Source of the DNA: a bacterium
GTDB lineage: Bacteria; Patescibacteriota; Minisyncoccia; Phycocordibacterales; UBA5272
Direction of reading: 5' to 3'
DNA: 64,000 nt
Assembly (NCBI GenBank): GCA_023267635.1
Contig: JAHFMX010000004.1
Span: forward strand, 2,837-66,836
Shown here: one piece after another, positions 1,538-55,706 of the stretch
How positions within the stretch are numbered: the stretch's first letter is position 1
Layout: every line of letters starts with the position of its first letter
Notes under the pieces: model-generated
What the model was told of the DNA's origin: nothing
Seen by the model: the letters and a program-made list of their open reading frames with translations, nothing else
Database searches by the model: none
Made by a program: the position numbers and the translations under genes

Positions 1538-1645
1538 TAAATCATCCTATCTACTTTGTCGCTACGGAATTTTTCTTCGTCAATGTACTATGTGTACATT
1601 TTCTAGAAAAATTTCTATGCTTCGCGTAGCTAGAATAATTTCTGA
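1538..1645 (+). repeat. 3'-UTR repeat family A, copy 1
   Basis: atcatcctatctactttgtcgctacggaatttttcttcgtcaatgta...gcttcgcgtagc; same core after the clpB and KH-domain genes; lies between stop codon and terminator. Confidence 0.6.
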
Positions 1646-8270: not shown

Positions 8271-8305
8271 GCCCAGGGCGGGACTCGAACCCGCACGCTG
8301 TATAT
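8271..8305 (-). repeat. inverted 35-nt copy of the tRNA-Leu(TAA) 3' end (T-arm + acceptor); tRNA fragment, not a full gene
   Basis: revcomp = acagcgtgcgggttcgagtcccgccctgggcaca, identical to 8913-8947; no matching 5' acceptor strand or anticodon arm upstream. Confidence 0.5.
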
Positions 8306-8400
8306 CAGCTGAGGAAGTTGCGCTAAGTCTGTTTAATGTAGACAGAATTGAAGGCGGACAATCTCCTATAACCTAAAGTTCAGGTAAGTGAATGAACGCA

Positions 8401-8437
8401 AAACGCGGTCCCGTTAGGGACCGCGTTTTTCTTTTTG
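8401..8437. terminator. rho-independent terminator (bidirectional)
   Basis: AAACGCGGTCCCgttaGGGACCGCGTTTttctttttg. Confidence 0.55.
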
Positions 8438-8440
8438 ATG

Positions 8441-8513
8441 TGTCCCCAGAAGGGATCGAACCTTCGACCTGCGGATTAAGAGTCCGATGCTCTACCAGCT
8501 GAGCTATAGGGAC
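8441..8513 (-). tRNA. tRNA-Lys (CTT)
   Basis: Manual cloverleaf on minus strand: acceptor GTCCCTA/TGGGGAC, anticodon loop CTCTTAA, T-arm GAAGGTTCGATCCCTTC. Confidence 0.8.
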
Positions 8514-8623
8514 ATTGACACACGCAGAACACTATACCATAGTATGAAAAACTTTTCTAGATATGTTAGTATGGTATCTATTATGAGGGCGGAACCAAGA
8601 GGTTCCGCCCTCAATAAAAGAAT

Positions 8624-8697
8624 GACGCAGTGGCGAAGTGGCCTAACGCTGCGGTTTGCAAAACCGCCATTCGCGGGTTCGACTCCCGCCTGCGTCT
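8624..8697 (+). tRNA. tRNA-Cys (GCA)
   Basis: Acceptor GACGCAG/CTGCGTC, anticodon stem GCGGT/ACCGC with loop TTGCAAA, T-arm GCGGGTTCGACTCCCGC. Confidence 0.85.
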
Positions 8698-8715
8698 CAC
8701 GAAGTGAGTAAAGGA

Positions 8716-8739
8716 AAAAGCCACCTGCGTGGCTTTTGT
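8716..8739 (+). terminator. terminator hairpin after tRNA-Cys
   Basis: aAGCCACctgcGTGGCTtttg. Confidence 0.45.
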
Positions 8740-8811
8740 CGGGAGTCGAATAGGGGTCGCGAAGTCTTCTGTTTCGAGTATTCACGAAACTAGACTTTGT
8801 GACCGAATCTC

Positions 8812-8830
8812 CCCGCCTGCGTCTCACGAA
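8812..8830 (+). repeat. direct repeat of tRNA-Cys 3' end
   Basis: cccgcctgcgtctcacgaa identical to 8685-8703, 127 bp downstream; preceded by a degenerate T-arm-like gaccgaatctcccc and an inverted T-arm fragment gggagtcgaa (8741-8750). Confidence 0.5.
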
Positions 8831-8837
8831 AGGAATG

Positions 8838-8846
8838 TGCTAGAAT
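8838..8846 (+). promoter_or_regulatory. extended -10 box TGCTAGAAT upstream of tRNA-Leu(TAA)
   Basis: gtgcTAGAATacag 18 nt before tRNA start. Confidence 0.4.
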
Positions 8847-8863
8847 ACAGCCTATAAAACCCT

Positions 8864-8946
8864 GCCCGGGTGATGGAATGGTAGACATAGAGGACTTAAA
8901 ATCCTCGGCTGGTTACAGCGTGCGGGTTCGAGTCCCGCCCTGGGCA
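8864..8946 (+). tRNA. tRNA-Leu (TAA)
   Basis: Acceptor GCCCGGG/CCTGGGC, anticodon stem GAGGA/TCCTC with loop CTTAAAA, long variable arm, T-arm GCGGGTTCGAGTCCCGC. Confidence 0.85.
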
Positions 8947-8953
8947 CATGAAA

Positions 8954-8992
8954 ATAAAAATACCGAAATCATTTTTCGGTATTTTTATTTTT
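8954..8992. terminator. AT-rich rho-independent terminator after tRNA-Leu
   Basis: aaaaATACCGAAAtcattTTTCGGTATttttatttt. Confidence 0.5.
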
Positions 8993-8996
8993 ACAT

Positions 8997-9118
8997 GCAG
9001 GGCGGGACTCGAACCGCGGGCCGCAACCTGCGAAGAGCAGGTGTAGGTTTCGAGGCAAGCATGCCGAGAGGCGAGTCCCGCTGCCAAGCTTCGAATCTGC
9101 TGATTCGCCTGGGCACAT
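8997..9118. other. tRNA-Leu-derived structured element / decayed pseudo-tRNA (identity unresolved)
   Basis: Starts with inverted T-arm/acceptor fragment gcagggcgggactcgaacc (18/19 to tRNA-Leu 3' end) and ends with direct cgcctgggcaca; internal 10-bp long-range stem gcgggactcg (9002-9011) / cgagtcccgc (9074-9083); cannot be folded as a cloverleaf on either strand. Confidence 0.3.
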
Positions 9119-18020: not shown

Positions 18021-20726
18021 ATGCCTCCAAATTTCAACAACTTCACCACCAAAGCAAAGGAAGTGATTCGTCGGGCGCATGAACTTGCTATCGAGCGAGG
18101 ACAGAACCAGGTGAGTCCACTCCATCTTATGGGAGCTCTTCTTACACAGGAAGAGTCTCTTGTGCATGCTATTTTAGAAAAATTAGAAATCGATATTGTT
18201 CATCTTACTGACAGCATTGTGGACGCTATTGAAGTTCCTGGAGCTTCAGCTACGATGAGTCCGTCATATCAGATGTATCTCACACCTGAACTTGCAACAA
18301 CACTTGAAATGTCACTGAAGGTTGCTCAAACCCTTGGAGACGAATTTGTTTCAACGGAACACCTCTTCCTTTCATTACTTGAATCACAAGGACAAGTACG
18401 TGAAGTACTTGCACGTTTCCGAATCGACAAGGACGCGGCATATCATATATTAGAAGACCTTCGCTCACAGAATATTACTGAAGCGCAAGGCGGAAAGAAA
18501 AATAAAGCACTCGCGAAATACACACGTAATTTCACGGAGCTTGCACGTGCGGACAAATTAGATCCAGTAATCGGTCGCGATACAGAAATCATGCGTCTTA
18601 TGCAAATTCTTTCTCGTCGCACAAAGAATAATCCAATCCTCATTGGTGAAGCTGGTGTTGGAAAAACTGCAGTAGTAGAAGGACTCGCAATTCGTATGGC
18701 AAAAGGGGATGTTCCAGAGTCTCTTAAAGGTAAAGAACTCGTATCACTTGATCTTGGAATGCTTATTGCTGGAACAAAGTTCCGCGGAGAATTTGAAGAA
18801 CGACTCAAAGCAATCATGAAAGAAATTGAACGCTCAGAAGGAGGCATTATTCTTTTCATCGATGAGATTCACACCATTGTCGGAGCGGGGGCAACAGAAG
18901 GATCAGCGGACGCCGCAAACCTACTCAAGCCAGCACTTTCTCGTGGAGAGCTCAGAGCCATTGGAGCAACAACTATCAAGGAGTATCAGAAGCATATCGA
19001 AAAGGATCCAGCTCTTGCCCGTCGTTTCCAGCCAGTGTTTGTAGAAGAACCAACAGAGCTCGACACGCTTGCGATCTTACGTGGCCTCAAGGAAAAGTAT
19101 GAACTCTTCCACGGGGTACGTATTACAGATGATGCTCTTATCTCAGCGGTGAATCTTTCGACTCGATATATTACGTCACGATTCCTACCTGATAAGGCAA
19201 TTGACCTTATTGATGAGGCTGCCTCATCTCTTCGTATTGCTCTCGAGAATAAGCCTCCTGTGCTTGATGATGCTCATCGCAAGATCATGCGTTTAGAAAT
19301 CGAAAAAGAAGCGCTCACGAAGGAACTTGTTGCACATAAGGAAGACGATGATGCGCATGGAACAGGAACTGAAAAGCGAATTCATGCTATCGACGAAGAG
19401 ATTGCAAACGTAAAAGAGAAGACTCGCGAACTTGAGCTTAAGTGGAAAAACGAAAAGAAGACACTTAATGAAATTGGAGAACTTAAAAAGTCTCTTGAAA
19501 CCCTCCGTATTGAAGCAGAGAACGCAGAAATGCGCGCTGACCTTACTCGCGCTGCGGAGATTCGTTATGGACAAATTCCAGAGCTTACACGCGAACTTGG
19601 TGAACGTATGGAGAAACTAAAGAAACTTCAGAAGACACGCAGAATTCTACGTGAAGAAATTACAGAAGAAGATATTGCTTCTGTGGTGGCTCGTTGGACG
19701 GGTATTCCTGTTGTGAAAATGTTGGAAGAGGAAGAAGAAAAATTAGCGCACATGGAAGAAGGACTTGGAGAACGTGTGATTGGACAGCGTGATCCAATAG
19801 AAAAAATAAGTGGAGCAGTGCGCCGAAGTCGTGCGGGGATTAATGATCCATCACGCCCAATCGGTTCATTCCTATTTCTTGGTCCAACGGGTGTTGGAAA
19901 AACGGAACTTACAAAGGCGCTCGCAGAGTTTATGTTCAATGACGAGAAAGCGCTCATCAAAGTGGATATGAGTGAATACATGGAGAAGCATTCAACGTCA
20001 AAGTTGATCGGAAGTCCTCCAGGATATGTTGGATATGATGAATCAGGGCAACTTACTGAAGCAGTTCGCCATCGTCCGTACGCCGTTATCTTGTTTGATG
20101 AAGTTGAAAAGGCTCATCCTGAAGTATTCAACTTACTTCTTCAGGTTCTTGATGAAGGGCGACTTACAGACAGTAAGGGGCGCATTGTTAACTTCAAGAA
20201 CACGATTATTGTGATGACATCCAACATTGGAAGTCAGCACATCCAGAAGATGGAGCAGATTGGGTTTACTAATCACACAGAAGGAAGTGAGTACGCACAA
20301 GTGAAGGAACGAGTTATGGAATCTCTCAAAGAATTCTTTAAGCCTGAGTTCTTAAACCGCCTTGATGAAACAATTATCTTTGATGTGCTCGACAAGAGTC
20401 AGGTGAAGCAAATTGTAGGTCTACAGATGGCTCAAATTGCAAAGCGCCTACAGGAAAAAGATATTATTCTTGAAACAACAGAAGAAGCTCTTGCTCACAT
20501 TGCAGAGAAATCGTTTGACCCACATTATGGAGCGCGACCTATCAAGCGATTTATTCAGACTCATATTTTGAATCAGGTTGCATCTCTCATGCTTTCAAAG
20601 AAATTTATGAAAGGGGGAATAGCTGCAGTAGCACTCGATAAAAAGGGAGACGTTATTGTTGAAGCAAAGAAACCAAAGAAGATTCCAAGTCCAATATCCA
20701 AAAAGGATCTTGTAACAAAGAAGTAA
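18021..20726 (+). CDS. clpB: ATP-dependent chaperone ClpB
   Basis: Clp N-domain; two AAA+ modules ([18 protein letters not shown]) with long middle coiled-coil; 901 aa. Confidence 0.9.
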
Positions 20727-20735
20727 AGATCTACA

Positions 20736-20895
20736 AAATCATCCCATCTACTTTGTCGCTACGGGATTTTTCTCAGTCAATGTATATGGAAATGTTCCTT
20801 TGCTTGCTAGCTCCGGAACTCTTTGTCGCTCTTCGCTCCTAGATCCTTCTAAAAATCCCTAAGCTTCGCGTACCTGGAACAATTTTCTAGATTTT
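20736..20895 (+). repeat. 3'-UTR repeat family A, copy 2 (composite, with nested ~60-nt insert)
   Basis: aaaatcatcccatctactttgtcgctacgggatttttctcagtcaatgta...ccctaagcttcgcgtacctgg; insert duplicates ctttgtcgct and carries ttgcttgctagctc. Confidence 0.6.
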
Positions 20896-20903
20896 AAAAA
20901 CAT

Positions 20904-20937
20904 AAAGTGCCGCATATTTGCGGCACTTTATGTTTTT
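20904..20937 (+). terminator. rho-independent terminator after clpB and repeat
   Basis: AAAGTGCCGCatatttGCGGCACTTTatgttttt. Confidence 0.65.
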
Positions 20938-23803: not shown

Positions 23804-24265
23804 TTAACTACTAACTCCTGACTTGGATTCGTGTTCCTCGGTGATCACTTCAACGTCTTCTTGAATTTCATCCACATCCTCCTGAATCTCATCAATATCT
23901 TCTTGCATTTCTTCCACGTCTTCAGCGATCTCCTCAACGTCCTCAGCAATCTCTTCGACATCTTCTGCAATTTCTTCAACGTCTTCTTGAATTTCATCAA
24001 TATCTTTTTCAACGTTGGCTAGCGCTCGCGCCTGATGGTTAACACTCATTTGAATGAAGATAGAGAGATAAATTGCTTCAAGAGATACGACTGTTGTTAA
24101 TACGAGGAGAACTCGATCTAGGCCAACACCCATAAGCACAAGCGTAAAAGCGCCTATAAATAAAAAGGTGTGAACAATGACAGACCAAATCGATCCTGTC
24201 CACTTGGTGATTTTAAGCGCAAGGATTTCTAGGTCATTTATTGGGGTGTTTTCATTTTTTTTCAT
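23804..24265 (-). CDS. DUF1003-like membrane protein with acidic heptad-repeat tail
   Basis: Two TM helices then (EDVEEIA)n repeats. Confidence 0.5.
   Translation of the reverse strand: MKKNENTPINDLEILALKITKWTGSIWSVIVHTFLFIGAFTLVLMGVGLDRVLLVLTTVVSLEAIYLSIFIQMSVNHQARALANVEKDIDEIQEDVEEIAEDVEEIAEDVEEIAEDVEEMQEDIDEIQEDVDEIQEDVEVITEEHESKSGVSS
23839..24010. repeat. coding 21-nt tandem repeat (about 8 units)
   Basis: catccacatcctcctgaatct / catcaatatcttcttgcattt / cttccacgtcttcagcgatct ...; encodes EDVEEIA heptads. Confidence 0.7.
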
Positions 24266-24369: not shown

Positions 24370-25470
24370 ATGACAATATTAATTCTTGTCGGACTACTTA
24401 TTCCGTTACTTATTCTGGGAGGTTTTGGTGCGCTTATTTATTTTCTTGTAAAGAAAAATACAAATTCTATGGAATCAAAAACAAAGGCTCTTGATGTGTT
24501 TATGTATCTCGGTATTTTCATATCGCTCATCGTGTCAGTGACAAATAGTATTCAAATACTTTTTACAGCTATTGAACGTAAGTTCACAGATGTGCTAGAA
24601 GTTGGACAGTATGTAGATATGTACGGAAGCGATATGCGCATGGCTATCGCTTCTCTTGTGGTGATGTTCCCCATCTACCTAGTTCTCTCAATGTACGTTT
24701 CAAGAGACATTAAGAAGTTTCTTTTCAAGCGTGGTCTTCTTATTCGTAAGATTTTTATTTACACAACGCTTTTTGCAACAGCGGTGACGCTTCTCGGTTC
24801 TCTTGTTGCAACAATCTACACATACCTGGGTGGAGAGCTTACTGTTCGTTTCGAACTTAAGGCGCTTACGGTGTTTGTTATCGCAGCAGCAGTGGGAGGA
24901 TATTACCTCTATGCGCTTCGTCGTGACTATACAAAGAAGACAATGGTACCGAACATAATTGCAGCAGCCTCTGCACTCTTCGTACTCGCTTCTCTTGTGT
25001 GGAGCGTTTCTATTATCGGTACTCCAGCTGAAATGAGACTTAAGCGAATTGACGATGCACGTCTTAACGATGTATCTCGTATTCAGCAAGAAATCTTTAA
25101 CCACTTCCAGAGCACTGATAAGTTACCAAAAGATCTTTCAGAGCTTGATGATGCCTTTCAAGGATATGTTGTTCCAAAGGATCCAGTAACAGGAGCAGTG
25201 TACGAGTATCGTGTACTTCAACAGCCCGTTGTAAGAGCAACTGCTGTTGTAGGTAAAAAAGAACTCACAACACCTGCTATCTTTGAAATCTGTGCAACAT
25301 TCGAGACTGAGCGAAAGTATGACGACCGAGGAACGCCAGTGTTCGCGGAGAAGATGTATTCTGTATCAAATTACTATTATTCTGGAGACACATCAGCTTT
25401 CTGGAATCATGGTATTGGTAAGACATGTTTTAAGAGGGTTATTTCTTCTGACATGTACTACGGTCGCTAA
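24370..25470 (+). CDS. hypothetical polytopic membrane protein with C-terminal soluble domain
   Basis: Six N-terminal TM helices; C-terminal domain with no known motif. Confidence 0.5.
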   Translation: MTILILVGLLIPLLILGGFGALIYFLVKKNTNSMESKTKALDVFMYLGIFISLIVSVTNSIQILFTAIERKFTDVLEVGQYVDMYGSDMRMAIASLVVMFPIYLVLSMYVSRDIKKFLFKRGLLIRKIFIYTTLFATAVTLLGSLVATIYTYLGGELTVRFELKALTVFVIAAAVGGYYLYALRRDYTKKTMVPNIIAAASALFVLASLVWSVSIIGTPAEMRLKRIDDARLNDVSRIQQEIFNHFQSTDKLPKDLSELDDAFQGYVVPKDPVTGAVYEYRVLQQPVVRATAVVGKKELTTPAIFEICATFETERKYDDRGTPVFAEKMYSVSNYYYSGDTSAFWNHGIGKTCFKRVISSDMYYGR

Positions 25471-25507
25471 TACAGTACACCAACACAATCTTCTTTGTTG
25501 TGGGACC

Positions 25508-25580
25508 CAGTTTTCTCAGTCAATGTACTATTCGTACACCTCCTTCAAAAACTTTCCCACGCCTCGAATCTTGTGCCGTT
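25508..25580 (+). repeat. 3'-UTR repeat family A, copy 4 (5'-truncated)
   Basis: cagttttctcagtcaatgtactattcgtacacctccttcaaaaactttcccacgcctcgaatcttg; shares tttctcagtcaatgta + hairpin + ttcaaaaa...c.tcg with copies 1-3. Confidence 0.5.
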
Positions 25581-25613
25581 ATACTGATTAGTTTTCTTCT
25601 GGGGATTTTTAAA

Positions 25614-25649
25614 TAAAGAGCGGCGCCTACGGCGCCGCTCTTTATTTTT
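25614..25649 (+). terminator. strong rho-independent terminator
   Basis: AAAGAGCGGCGCCtacGGCGCCGCTCTTTattttta; 13-bp stem. Confidence 0.7.
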
Positions 25650-45498: not shown

Positions 45499-45640
45499 AA
45501 ATAAAACCCTTCATTGGTATTGATAAATAAAAAGATTGCTTCAGATGCAAGGCGTGGAGGGTTTGCGAAGAAGATGTAGATACAACTACATTGATGAGCA
45601 AACGAGGCTCCGCAACGCAGCAGATGAGGCGATATTTTAT

Positions 45641-46438
45641 TTATCTAGGGAGAAAGATAAAGAAGGCGATGATGCCAATAATAATTCTATAGAACCCAAA
45701 CACAACAAACGTGTGTTTTTTAATATAATCAAGGAAGAGTTTAATAACAAAGGTTGCAACAATAAATGAAGAAAGCATTCCGACTAAAAGCGGTGTAAGG
45801 TTTGCTGAGTGAAGTACGACATCCATATTTTTATAGAAAGAATAGAGTGTTGCAGCTGCCATGGTTGGAACAGCTAAAAGGAAAGTAAATTCAGTGAGAA
45901 TCTTTCTGTCGAGTTTCATAAGAAGTCCTCCTATGATTACTGAACCAGAGCGAGACACTCCTGGAATTATGGCTACAATTTGATAGATACCTAGAAGGAA
46001 CGCTTCCTTCATAGATACCTCATGACGAAGTTCTACTATTCCTGCCTCGGTCCATTTTAGGTACATATGTTCCACAAAGAGGATAATAATTCCTCCGATA
46101 AAAAGGGTGACACCAACCAAGAGTGGATTAGTAAGAAGTGGTTTGATGTATGGATAGATAAAAAAGCCTGCTAATCCTGTTGGAATGAATCCCACAGTTA
46201 AGCGTTTAATCATTGATACCGTAAAAATTCTTTTCCAGAACATGTAGAGCACTGCTAAGATGGCACCAAGTTGTATTGCGATTTCAAAAGCGATAAGGAA
46301 ATCAGTCTGAGGGATGTTAAGAAAATGAGAAGCAAGGATGAGGTGTCCTGTTGAAGAGATTGGTAAAAACTCCGCGAGACCCTCAATTATTCCAAGAACA
46401 AGGGCTTGTAAGATAGTCATGTGTGTATAATAACACAT
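45641..46438 (-). CDS. uppP: undecaprenyl-diphosphatase
   Basis: ISSTGHLIL and SRSGSVIIGG motifs. Confidence 0.85.
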   Translation of the reverse strand: MCYYTHMTILQALVLGIIEGLAEFLPISSTGHLILASHFLNIPQTDFLIAFEIAIQLGAILAVLYMFWKRIFTVSMIKRLTVGFIPTGLAGFFIYPYIKPLLTNPLLVGVTLFIGGIIILFVEHMYLKWTEAGIVELRHEVSMKEAFLLGIYQIVAIIPGVSRSGSVIIGGLLMKLDRKILTEFTFLLAVPTMAAATLYSFYKNMDVVLHSANLTPLLVGMLSSFIVATFVIKLFLDYIKKHTFVVFGFYRIIIGIIAFFIFLPR

Positions 46439-52306: not shown

Positions 52307-52624
52307 ATGAAAGACCAAGAATTTGTTGAATATGTTGTAAAGGCACTTGTAGAGAATCAAGATGAGGTAAAAGTAGAACGACGAGTGGATGAGATGGGTG
52401 TTTTGATTACACTTGATGTGGCTGCGGAAGATATGGGAAAAATTATCGGGCGTGATGGAGCAACCGCAAAGGCGCTCCGAACATTGCTCCGTGTTGTTGG
52501 TATGAAGAACAATGCTCGAGTGAATTTGAAAATTAACGAACCAGAAGGACGCACGGATGGACAAGTTCCACGGTATGATACCTCAGATGTGGACGCAGTG
52601 ATGAATGACTTGAAGTCTTTGTAG
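52307..52624 (+). CDS. KH-domain RNA-binding protein (YlqC/UPF0109)
   Basis: KH motif GKIIGRDGATAKALR; rpsP-KH-trmD synteny. Confidence 0.75.
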   Translation: MKDQEFVEYVVKALVENQDEVKVERRVDEMGVLITLDVAAEDMGKIIGRDGATAKALRTLLRVVGMKNNARVNLKINEPEGRTDGQVPRYDTSDVDAVMNDLKSL

Positions 52625-52628
52625 TAAA

Positions 52629-52730
52629 ACTATTCCACCTACTTTGTCGCTACGGAATTTTTCTCAGTCAACGTAGAGGTGCCTACGTCTCTTTCAAAAA
52701 TTCCTAAGCTTCGCGTATCTGAAGCAGTTT
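52629..52730 (+). repeat. 3'-UTR repeat family A, copy 3
   Basis: ctattccacctactttgtcgctacggaatttttctcagtcaacgtagaggtgcctacgtct...ttcaaaaattcctaagcttcgcgtatctg. Confidence 0.6.
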
Positions 52731-52740
52731 TCCAAGAAAG

Positions 52741-52770
52741 AAAAAGCCCCACTTTGTGGAGCTTTTTTTA
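52741..52770. terminator. bidirectional terminator
   Basis: aaaaAGCcCCACtttGTGGaGCTttttttt. Confidence 0.5.
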
Positions 52771-54696: not shown

Positions 54697-55578
54697 ATGG
54701 AAAATAATAATCTTATTGATGCTGAAATCGCTGAACTGGAAAATCTCATGAATGGGGTTGATTTTTGGAATGATAAAGAGAAGGCTCAGGACACTATCAA
54801 GAAGATAAAAGAACTAAAAGATAGACGTGATGGAGTTGGAGCTCTCGATAAAGGAAATGCAATTCTTACACTCTTAGCTGGAGCTGGAGGAGATGATAGC
54901 GAAGACTTCACTCGCATGTTGTTTGAAATGTATGACGCGTACTGTAAACGAAAAGGATATTCATATAGTGTTCTTCATGATAATAAAAATGAGCGTGGAG
55001 GATTTCGTAATCTTACGATAGAAATTGATGGCAAGAACGCCTATGGAAATTTGAAACAAGAATCAGGAGTACACAGACTCGTACGCATCTCACCATTTAA
55101 TGCACAAGCAAAGCGCCACACATCATTTGCTCTTGTGGAAGTGTTGCCTGTAATTCCAGCTGTTGAACAAACACCAATCGCTCCAGAAGATATTCGTATC
55201 GAAACATCTAAGTCATCTGGCCCTGGTGGGCAAAATGTGAACAAGCGAGAAACAGCAGTTCGTATTGTGCACATTCCTACAAATATCGCAGTTCATGTAG
55301 CAACAGAACGAGAACAAGAGCGCAACAAACAAAAAGCACTCGAAATTTTGGCTGCGAAATTGTACAAGATACAAGAAGAAGAGCGACAAGCAGAAATTGA
55401 AGGAAGGCAGATTAGTAAGACGATGGAAATAGAATGGGGGAATCAGATTCGCTCGTATGTTCTCCATCCGTATAAGATGGTGAAAGATCACAGAACAGAT
55501 GTGGAAACGAGTAACATCGAAGCGGTTCTTGAAAAAGGAGAGATCGATGAATTCATTGAAGCTGAAAAGAAGCTGTAA
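54697..55578 (+). CDS. prfB: peptide chain release factor 2 (N-terminally short, no programmed frameshift)
   Basis: GGQ (SGPGGQNVNK) and RF2-specific SPF (RISPFNAQ) motifs; 293 aa. Confidence 0.8.
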   Translation: MENNNLIDAEIAELENLMNGVDFWNDKEKAQDTIKKIKELKDRRDGVGALDKGNAILTLLAGAGGDDSEDFTRMLFEMYDAYCKRKGYSYSVLHDNKNERGGFRNLTIEIDGKNAYGNLKQESGVHRLVRISPFNAQAKRHTSFALVEVLPVIPAVEQTPIAPEDIRIETSKSSGPGGQNVNKRETAVRIVHIPTNIAVHVATEREQERNKQKALEILAAKLYKIQEEERQAEIEGRQISKTMEIEWGNQIRSYVLHPYKMVKDHRTDVETSNIEAVLEKGEIDEFIEAEKKL

Positions 55579-55621
55579 TTGACTCATTAGGTATAAAAAT
55601 GTAGGGTTATAGCAGTTGTTT

Positions 55622-55667
55622 CTATACCGAAGCGGACAGTGCGATTGCTTTGTCCGCTTCGGTATAG
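55622..55667 (+). other. 17-bp perfect stem-loop without T-tract
   Basis: CTATACCGAAGCGGACAgtgcgattgctttGTCCGCTTCGGTATAG between prfB and a GC-rich ORFan. Confidence 0.5.
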
Positions 55668-55706
55668 CCCATGTCGGGTCAGTACTATGAGGCAAGGAGA
55701 AATGAA

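Follow-up and report, generated by a model that had tools for sequence, protein, structure and literature searches.

The element designated Family A in the initial annotation is clearly a lineage-specific dispersed palindromic repeat of the Paceibacteria (Candidate Phyla Radiation, CPR), of the REP/ERIC/MITE kind and new for the CPR. This identification rests on the occurrence of multiple copies behind unrelated genes, their structure, their docking on stop codons, their orientation, their turnover and homogenisation, and an asymmetry between the two strands. The CPR or Patescibacteria have genomes that are among the smallest and most streamlined known, and they cannot be grown alone. In the 64 kb stretch of DNA analysed here (the window), approximately 8 % of the genes carry the hairpin on their stop codon, a conserved non-coding structure that is unexpected ballast for streamlined genomes. 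As a repeat family, it would be the first known to us from this radiation and a convenient marker in strain typing, in binning and in comparisons of synteny and, if the asymmetry and the docking are functional, they would point to a hitherto unknown form of gene-end marking in organisms with a hardly studied RNA biology. The covariance model can be used to annotate the element and avoids mistaking it for terminators or small ORFs.

Copies in the window and their fold

A first covariance model (R1), run unfiltered, identified five copies in the window, including one that had been missed previously (copy 5), and a second model (R2), built from 53 copies, found the same five and no others. Hence, the shared-core family behind unrelated genes described in the initial annotation was confirmed, but it has five members in the window and not four. 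The copies are spaced 5–20 kb apart behind parB, clpB, the DUF5671 gene, bacA and khpA, and are given below with the stop codons and terminators next to them.

1529–1651, + strand: copy 1, canonical type; 120 bits with R1 and 119.8 bits with R2 on the complementary strand; folds
1531–1533: stop codon (TAG) of parB, within the stem base of copy 1; ParB identified by Pfam
1674–1712: bidirectional intrinsic terminator, separate from the repeat, downstream of copy 1
20724–20897, + strand: copy 2, canonical arms; 94.6 bits
20724–20726: stop codon (TAA) of clpB, at the start of the stem base of copy 2; ClpB identified by Pfam
20900–20933: separate intrinsic terminator downstream of copy 2
25460–25594, + strand: copy 4, full-length and diverged; 62.9 bits with R1 and 86.3 bits with R2
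25468–25470: stop codon (TAA) of the DUF5671 membrane-protein gene upstream of copy 4
25612–25646: separate intrinsic terminator downstream of copy 4
45519–45649, - strand: copy 5, diverged; 54.4 bits with R1 and 71.2 bits with R2 on the + strand
45641–45643, - strand: stop codon (TAA) of bacA/uppP, in the same orientation as copy 5; BacA identified by Pfam
52616–52739, + strand: copy 3, canonical type; 115.8 bits with R1
52622–52624: stop codon (TAG) of khpA, within the stem base of copy 3; KhpA identified by Pfam
52741–52767: separate bidirectional intrinsic terminator abutting copy 3

A 26-nt core (CTACTTTGTCGCTACGGRATTTTTCT) is present at 1551, 20748 and 52639, always on the + strand, and had no matches across 100 shuffles. 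The sequence TTTTCTYMGTCAAYGTA was found at 1571, 20768, 25511 and 52659, a 3' box is present in copies 2 and 3, and a repeat search of the window yielded the same families (D2, D4 and D10). Copy 4, which had been considered truncated at its 5' end, is complete but diverged; its helices are made up of other sequences that compensate on both sides, the pairing is intact, and the fold energy is -51.4 kcal/mol for the complementary strand versus -27.9 kcal/mol for the gene strand. Copy 5 (also delimited as 45523–45646) lies between two convergent genes, and its match to the model is on the + strand, i.e. the complement of the strand of its gene. The apical hairpin of copy 2 is replaced by an insertion of approximately 45 nt. 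The sequence at this apex (20785–20845 in the window) includes CTCTTTGTCGCTCTTCGCTCC, which resembles the left-loop motif CTACTTTGTCGCT and the right-loop motif GCTTCGCG of the element placed next to one another and, judged from this resemblance, the insertion may be what is left of another copy that had nested within the apical hairpin.

Each copy forms one long interrupted hairpin of approximately 125–160 nt, an imperfect inverted repeat, and the two conserved cores formerly seen as separate boxes are the two arms of this single hairpin. The fold is described here for the better-folding strand. The outer stem is 15–28 bp long and its outermost part differs copy by copy. Next inward is a 3-bp helix (UAC/GUA), followed by an internal loop in which GAGGA or GCGAA faces GACAAA, then a GCY/AGC helix, then a GGAAUUUUU/AAAAAUUCC helix. 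Two tandem G.A motifs lie on either side of a 2-bp step, and the two internal-loop regions are purine-rich. The variable apical hairpin is mostly GACGUAC...GUACGUU, with the loop free. On hand inspection, the internal loops could be assigned neither to the kink-turns, as there is no 3-nt bulge beside the tandem G.A, nor to the sarcin-ricin motif, as the AGUA belongs to a covarying helix.

Analysis of 20 copies with RNAalifold gave 36 pairs, of which 19 show compensatory changes, and in an alignment of 53 copies changes on both sides were seen at 30 of the 36 pairs. Standard pairs occupy 95.5 % of the pair cells in the 53-copy alignment, compared to 38–63 % in slid registers, and in none of 500 shuffles were its pairing values matched; this alignment was fitted to the model and so favours the structure, but the margin is large and folds of single sequences agree. 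The GUA/UAC helix covaries to GAA/UUC and GCA/UGC. The earlier proposal that structure is conserved over sequence was therefore borne out by strong covariation, though it extends to the whole rod and not just to the small apical hairpin.

Further features of the window were recorded. Seven in-register 21-nt tandem units (family D1) at 23835–24030 lie inside a minus-strand ORF (23804–24265), where they would encode an acidic repeat of seven residues within a small protein. A tRNA cluster (8274–9015) includes tRNAs at 8441–8513, 8624–8697 and 8864–8946 and exact 18–19-nt duplicates of tRNA 3' ends (8685–8703 is the same as 8812–8830, and 8274–8291 the same as 8998–9015), which on their sequence suggests tRNA fragments or pseudo-tRNAs. 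ParB (388–1533) has an acidic-rich tail of approximately 115 residues after the dimerisation domain, for which there was no Pfam domain match.

Position, transcription and turnover

Altogether, the window, 13 Paceibacteria/Nomurabacteria MAGs and metagenomes yielded 56 distinct copies, of which 54 could be assessed for position. The stop codon of a long ORF falls inside the first 17 nt of the left (5') arm in 48 of these 54, and all 22 copies with an exact core have the end of a long same-strand ORF 10–27 nt ahead of the core. The base of the stem is approximately 4 nt upstream of the stop codon (median), such that the stop codon, and often the last codons, are paired, and their partner is the copy-specific distal right arm. 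Thus, the element does not start 5–15 nt after the stop codon, as had been reported; the stop codon is inside the base of the stem. The copies that depart from this docking comprise three reversed ones and, in tandem pairs, the distal member. A peptide or readthrough extension was rejected, as the distances from the stop codon to the core (-10 to -27 nt) fall in all three frames.

The orientation of the element relative to genes is 51 : 3. The three reversed copies (L030 2609–2731, L037 10816–10937 and L041 1719–1843) are upstream of rpsS, ftsA and rpsG and place the strongly folding strand in the 5' UTR; in two of them, L037 and L030, the arm that usually holds the stop codon contains a start codon, that of ftsA or rpsS. 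In five convergent pairs (L004, L017, L026, L010 and L040), both stop codons are in the two arms of one rod, and no other terminator was noted between the genes. The direction of replication was rejected as the determinant of orientation, the ratio being 38 : 6 by GC skew versus 51 : 3 by gene direction. GC skew is positive throughout the window, copy 5 flips with its head-on gene, and the gene rule is obeyed by four head-on genes.

The host genes are unrelated to one another, of housekeeping and mostly strongly expressed kinds. Those identified using Pfam encode ParB, ClpB, DUF5671, BacA, KhpA, SLOG, L27, L5, S20 and S7, and further ones, identified by eye, include those for SecY, EF-G, MreB, DnaJ, RF2, GyrA, S12, S18 and SSB, among others. 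The stop codons of the 48 docked genes are TAA (38) and TAG (10), with no TGA, against a background of 154 TAA, 80 TAG and 20 TGA. TGA is generally rare as a stop codon, ending 20 of the 254 long ORFs in the window and the loci.

By its position, the element is co-transcribed with the upstream gene, as a 3' UTR or as intercistronic RNA. The transcribed position in the initial annotation was upheld, with copies found between the stop codon and a terminator or between the cistrons of rpsF-ssb-rpsR, and transcription of the sense strand is certain because in L053 the element is behind both ssb and rpsR inside one operon. Copies are also found inside rpsL-rpsG-fusA operons. A terminator had been reported behind every copy, and this applies to four of the five copies in the window (none was predicted at the site of copy 5) but family-wide to only 16 of 49, counting terminators within 110 nt, and a downstream terminator is not a family-wide feature. 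The element itself was rejected as an intrinsic terminator, as the scan reported only separate downstream hairpins and none at copy 5. No consistent promoters for RNA from the complementary strand were found, and a TTGACT inside the element was discarded as a promoter because no usable -10 box accompanies it and the sequence is not a conserved one, GGCGACU being among the variants.

When one genome for each species was scanned with the exact pattern, the core was located in 19 stretches belonging to 13 MAGs, which are labelled as Nomurabacteria, Paceibacterota or Parcubacteria and, in a few cases, 'Saccharibacteria'. On this basis, the window was assigned to a CPR/Patescibacteria genome. A metagenome scan added approximately 28 further real loci with differing flanks; 14 other matches to the pattern were due to chance, lay inside unrelated coding sequences and were discarded. 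The possibility that the family reflects chance similarity, low-complexity sequence or an assembly artefact, the last a concern raised at the outset, is negligible. No shuffled sequence matched the core, the covariance model E-values range from 1e-9 to 1e-28, and the element recurs in 13 independently assembled MAGs, with varied flanks, and on approximately 28 metagenome contigs. A scan of the window against Rfam 15 at gathering thresholds returned seven tRNAs only and no family over the element, and when both strands of copies 1 and 3 were scanned against Rfam by E-value only the downstream terminators matched. There were no matches to the element in collections of viral contigs, phages and plasmids, or in 5426 complete Escherichia coli genomes (blastn, 11-base words), and no description of it was found in the literature by sequence or by topic.

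On the time scale of species divergence, turnover of the element by gain, loss, tandem duplication, subtype replacement and within-genome homogenisation was shown. Four pairs of filled and empty orthologous sites were found, the orthologues without the element being 77–94 % identical in protein. The mreB site is filled in L002 and empty in L004, at 94 % protein identity, and one empty orthologous site retains a 20-nt relic. At the DUF5671 site, the copy in the window is diverged, that in L012 is canonical, and L052 has one of each in tandem; copy 4 is the orthologue of the proximal member of the L052 pair, and the sites of copy 4 and of the L012 copy are orthologous. At the fusA site, the subtype (type 1 or type 2) differs between two genomes. 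In genome JAHFMZ, the central modules of four copies at unrelated sites are 0.90–0.99 identical, whereas at orthologous sites between genomes the central modules are 0.80–0.90 identical. The MITE-like option offered in the initial annotation fits these gain, loss, tandem and replacement events.

When one site is compared across species (the mreB and rpsG sets), its copies differ by changes on both sides of the stem, and the distal right arm in L001 and L017 has changes that match synonymous substitutions in the final codons. The right arm in L002 and L023 is paired with native codons of mreB, which the orthologue without the element also has and, hence, the stem was extended after insertion. 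Selection, or a template switch inside the palindrome, would have brought this about.

Neither a transposase nor an autonomous partner was found in viral contigs, phages, plasmids or 0.48 Mb of loci. In the same 0.48 Mb, which consists of genome fragments, no IS200-like or RAYT-like ORF was found, though this is a weak negative; tblastn with IS608 TnpA and E. coli RAYT sequences gave only spurious matches inside a ribonucleotide reductase gene. Inspection of 48 copies revealed no direct repeats outside the stem ends that could represent a target-site duplication. A different structure, a long near-perfect G+C-rich hairpin (CTATACCGAAGCGGACA...TGTCCGCTTCGGTATAG) with no T-run, is found at 55619–55670 in the window behind an RF2-like gene (54697–55578), where the orthologue in L008 has a Family A copy.

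Strand asymmetry and maintenance of the repeat

The strand complementary to the mRNA folds better than the mRNA strand in 57 of 58 copies, with mean fold energies of -47.4 versus -33.9 kcal/mol using RNA parameters and -22.6 versus -18.6 kcal/mol using DNA parameters. For copy 3, the z-scores are -3.9 (complementary strand) and -1.8 (gene strand). At the fixed pairs there are 118 G.U cells on the complementary strand and 17 on the mRNA strand, the corresponding numbers for the copy-specific outer helix are 27 and 7, and the bias is toward the complementary strand in 49 of 53 copies. In the conserved loops, tandem G.A on the complementary strand corresponds to U.C/C.U in the mRNA. Within the element, the mRNA strand has much C and little G (23 % versus 14 %), and it still has 90 % standard pairs. 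A mutational bias was considered as the source of the G.U asymmetry and rejected, since deamination on the non-template or leading strand would yield G.U on the sense strand; known biases would thus predict the opposite pattern, and for this reason the asymmetry was read as selection on the fold of the complementary strand.

The asymmetry bears on whether the element acts in cis in the sense mRNA, as a barrier to 3'-to-5' exonucleases, an intercistronic processing site or, via its pyrimidine-rich loops, a landing pad for an RNA-binding protein. Such a role deserves consideration, though we think it on balance unlikely. The position of the element guarantees its transcription in the sense direction, including in the rpsF-ssb-rpsR and rpsL-rpsG-fusA operons, its placement and orientation follow strict rules, the hosts are mostly strongly expressed housekeeping genes, the fold is retained at orthologous sites across species, and the sense strand, with its standard pairs largely kept, has a mean fold energy of -34 kcal/mol. 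However, it is the other strand that has the G.U pairs and tandem G.A, which in the mRNA become C.A mismatches and U.C/C.U loops, and copy 3 reaches a z-score of only -1.8 in the sense direction. The absence of the element from orthologues that are 77–94 % identical in protein indicates that it is dispensable, and homogenisation and subtype replacement are not expected for a locus-specific regulator. The stronger fold of the mRNA complement likewise argues against a landing pad in the sense RNA, which the initial annotation had listed together with a 3'-UTR-derived small RNA; no evidence for a processed small RNA was found, and the better-folding strand argues against a simple form of this too.

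The explanation we favour, with somewhat less than even confidence, is that the repeat is maintained via the hairpin of the non-mRNA strand, and is tolerated or mildly useful only where the weaker complement is in the mRNA directly behind a stop codon. The fold under selection would be that of the complement of the mRNA, which carries the G.U pairs and the tandem G.A loops, and this hairpin would be used for the maintenance or spread of the element itself or by a factor that acts on the same strand. Most surviving copies would be those whose weaker, pyrimidine-rich complement enters the mRNA; it would be tolerated right after the stop codon, where it may serve as a moderate 3' hairpin. Several observations count against this. 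The searches yielded no transposase or autonomous partner in viral contigs, phages, plasmids and 0.48 Mb of loci, no target-site duplication in the copies inspected, and no promoters for the complementary strand. The changes on both sides at orthologous sites and the persistence of G.U at fixed positions resemble host-level selection more than the decay of a selfish element. In addition, in the five convergent pairs and the three reversed copies the strongly folding strand is within an mRNA, and that orientation is therefore not lethal.

We regard it as unlikely, though still a candidate, that the rods are instead a host system of these minimal-genome bacteria, with the mRNA-complementary strand, as antisense RNA or single-stranded DNA, being the functional form and acting as a strand-selective gene-end signal. 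Such a signal might stop or destroy RNA reading backwards into the gene, or dock a structure-specific enzyme. To our knowledge, a system of this kind has no described counterpart.

Another proposal, which we consider distinctly improbable, is a strand-selective barrier to antisense transcription, whereby a strong rod would be formed only in RNA entering the gene from downstream and would stop or mark that transcript (e.g. for RNase III) while the mRNA is spared. The complementary strand does fold much better in nearly every copy, with outer stems of 20–28 bp, the stem ends at the stop codon and so at the gene boundary, orientation tracks the gene and not replication (including at the four head-on genes), and some convergent pairs share one rod with no other terminator. 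On the other hand, no promoters that would feed antisense transcripts were found, many copies are in co-directional ribosomal-protein operons where antisense transcription is unexpected, a bidirectional terminator is often already present between the rod and the downstream DNA, and the rod has no U-tract of its own.

Comparison with known repeat systems

In form, the element resembles the attC sites of integrons, being a palindrome behind an ORF in a fixed orientation, with the folded strand the complement of the ORF and with a variable terminal part. A site in single-stranded DNA, comparable to attC or to the substrates of HUH/RAYT enzymes, would involve recognition of the non-coding-strand hairpin by a recombinase or nuclease, and we consider this very unlikely. 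Size and the dominance of structure over sequence are also attC-like, copy 2 has its 45-nt insertion in the variable terminal part, the strand asymmetry holds with DNA energy parameters (-22.6 versus -18.6 kcal/mol), and canonical copies have two GTAG motifs on the strong strand. However, the R''/R' core sites (RYYYAAC/GTTRRRY) are absent, and reading of the aligned arms showed that the element ends AAAUYRUU.../...AAYRAUUU, with no conserved AAC/GTT pair where attC requires one. The copies are dispersed behind syntenic housekeeping genes and not in cassette arrays, no integrase or Y1 transposase was found in the sampled loci, the GTAG belongs to a helix that covaries and does not constitute a fixed tag, and in most cases the strong strand is the one that templates leading-strand synthesis, on which single-stranded DNA is scarce. 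The likeness to attC is one of form only.

REPs are mostly found downstream of ORFs, between unidirectional or convergent genes, and are judged to be transcribed (Di Nocera 2013, PMC3733652). REPIN/RAYT systems are reported to be inherited vertically, with dynamics inside each genome (PMC3116915). Like REP, BIME and REPIN sequences, the element is an extragenic palindrome downstream of ORFs (48 of 54 copies), and its canonical copies contain GTAG. Unlike the 20–40-nt palindrome or doublet of REP sequences, the unit is 125–160 nt long with conserved asymmetric internal loops, and its GTAG sits in a covarying helix, so that there is no fixed GTAG/CGTC tag. No RAYT was found in the 0.48 Mb of loci sampled from these genomes, which is a weak negative.

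The Correia/NEMIS and RUP repeats and bcr1 of Bacillus cereus are non-coding, multi-copy and co-transcribed, with terminal inverted repeats and presence/absence polymorphism. Part of this description follows the background given in PMC3733652. The element shares with these MITE-type 3'-UTR repeats its non-coding nature, co-transcription, terminal inverted repeats, with the outer arms (helices 1 and 2) paired in 88–97 % of cells, and many copies with presence/absence polymorphism (five in 64 kb, and four filled/empty pairs). It differs from MITEs in that no target-site duplication was seen in the 48 copies inspected, in that the outermost stem is copy-specific and reaches into native coding sequence, and in that old copies keep their fold via changes on both sides. 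No cognate IS was found in the viral contigs, phages, plasmids and 0.48 Mb of loci searched.

The ERIC (or IRU) sequences of enterobacteria are imperfect palindromes of approximately 127 bp that form one long hairpin, are dispersed in transcribed intergenic regions adjoining unrelated genes, and vary between related genomes. The element is like ERIC in its length, in being a long imperfect hairpin over its whole extent, in its dispersed transcribed positions and in its variation between genomes. It is found in a different phylum (CPR) and has no sequence similarity to anything in the E. coli genomes. The docking on stop codons (48 of 54) and the orientation lock (51 : 3) of the element are also far stricter than is known for ERIC, and a further difference is that its stronger fold is that of the non-mRNA strand.
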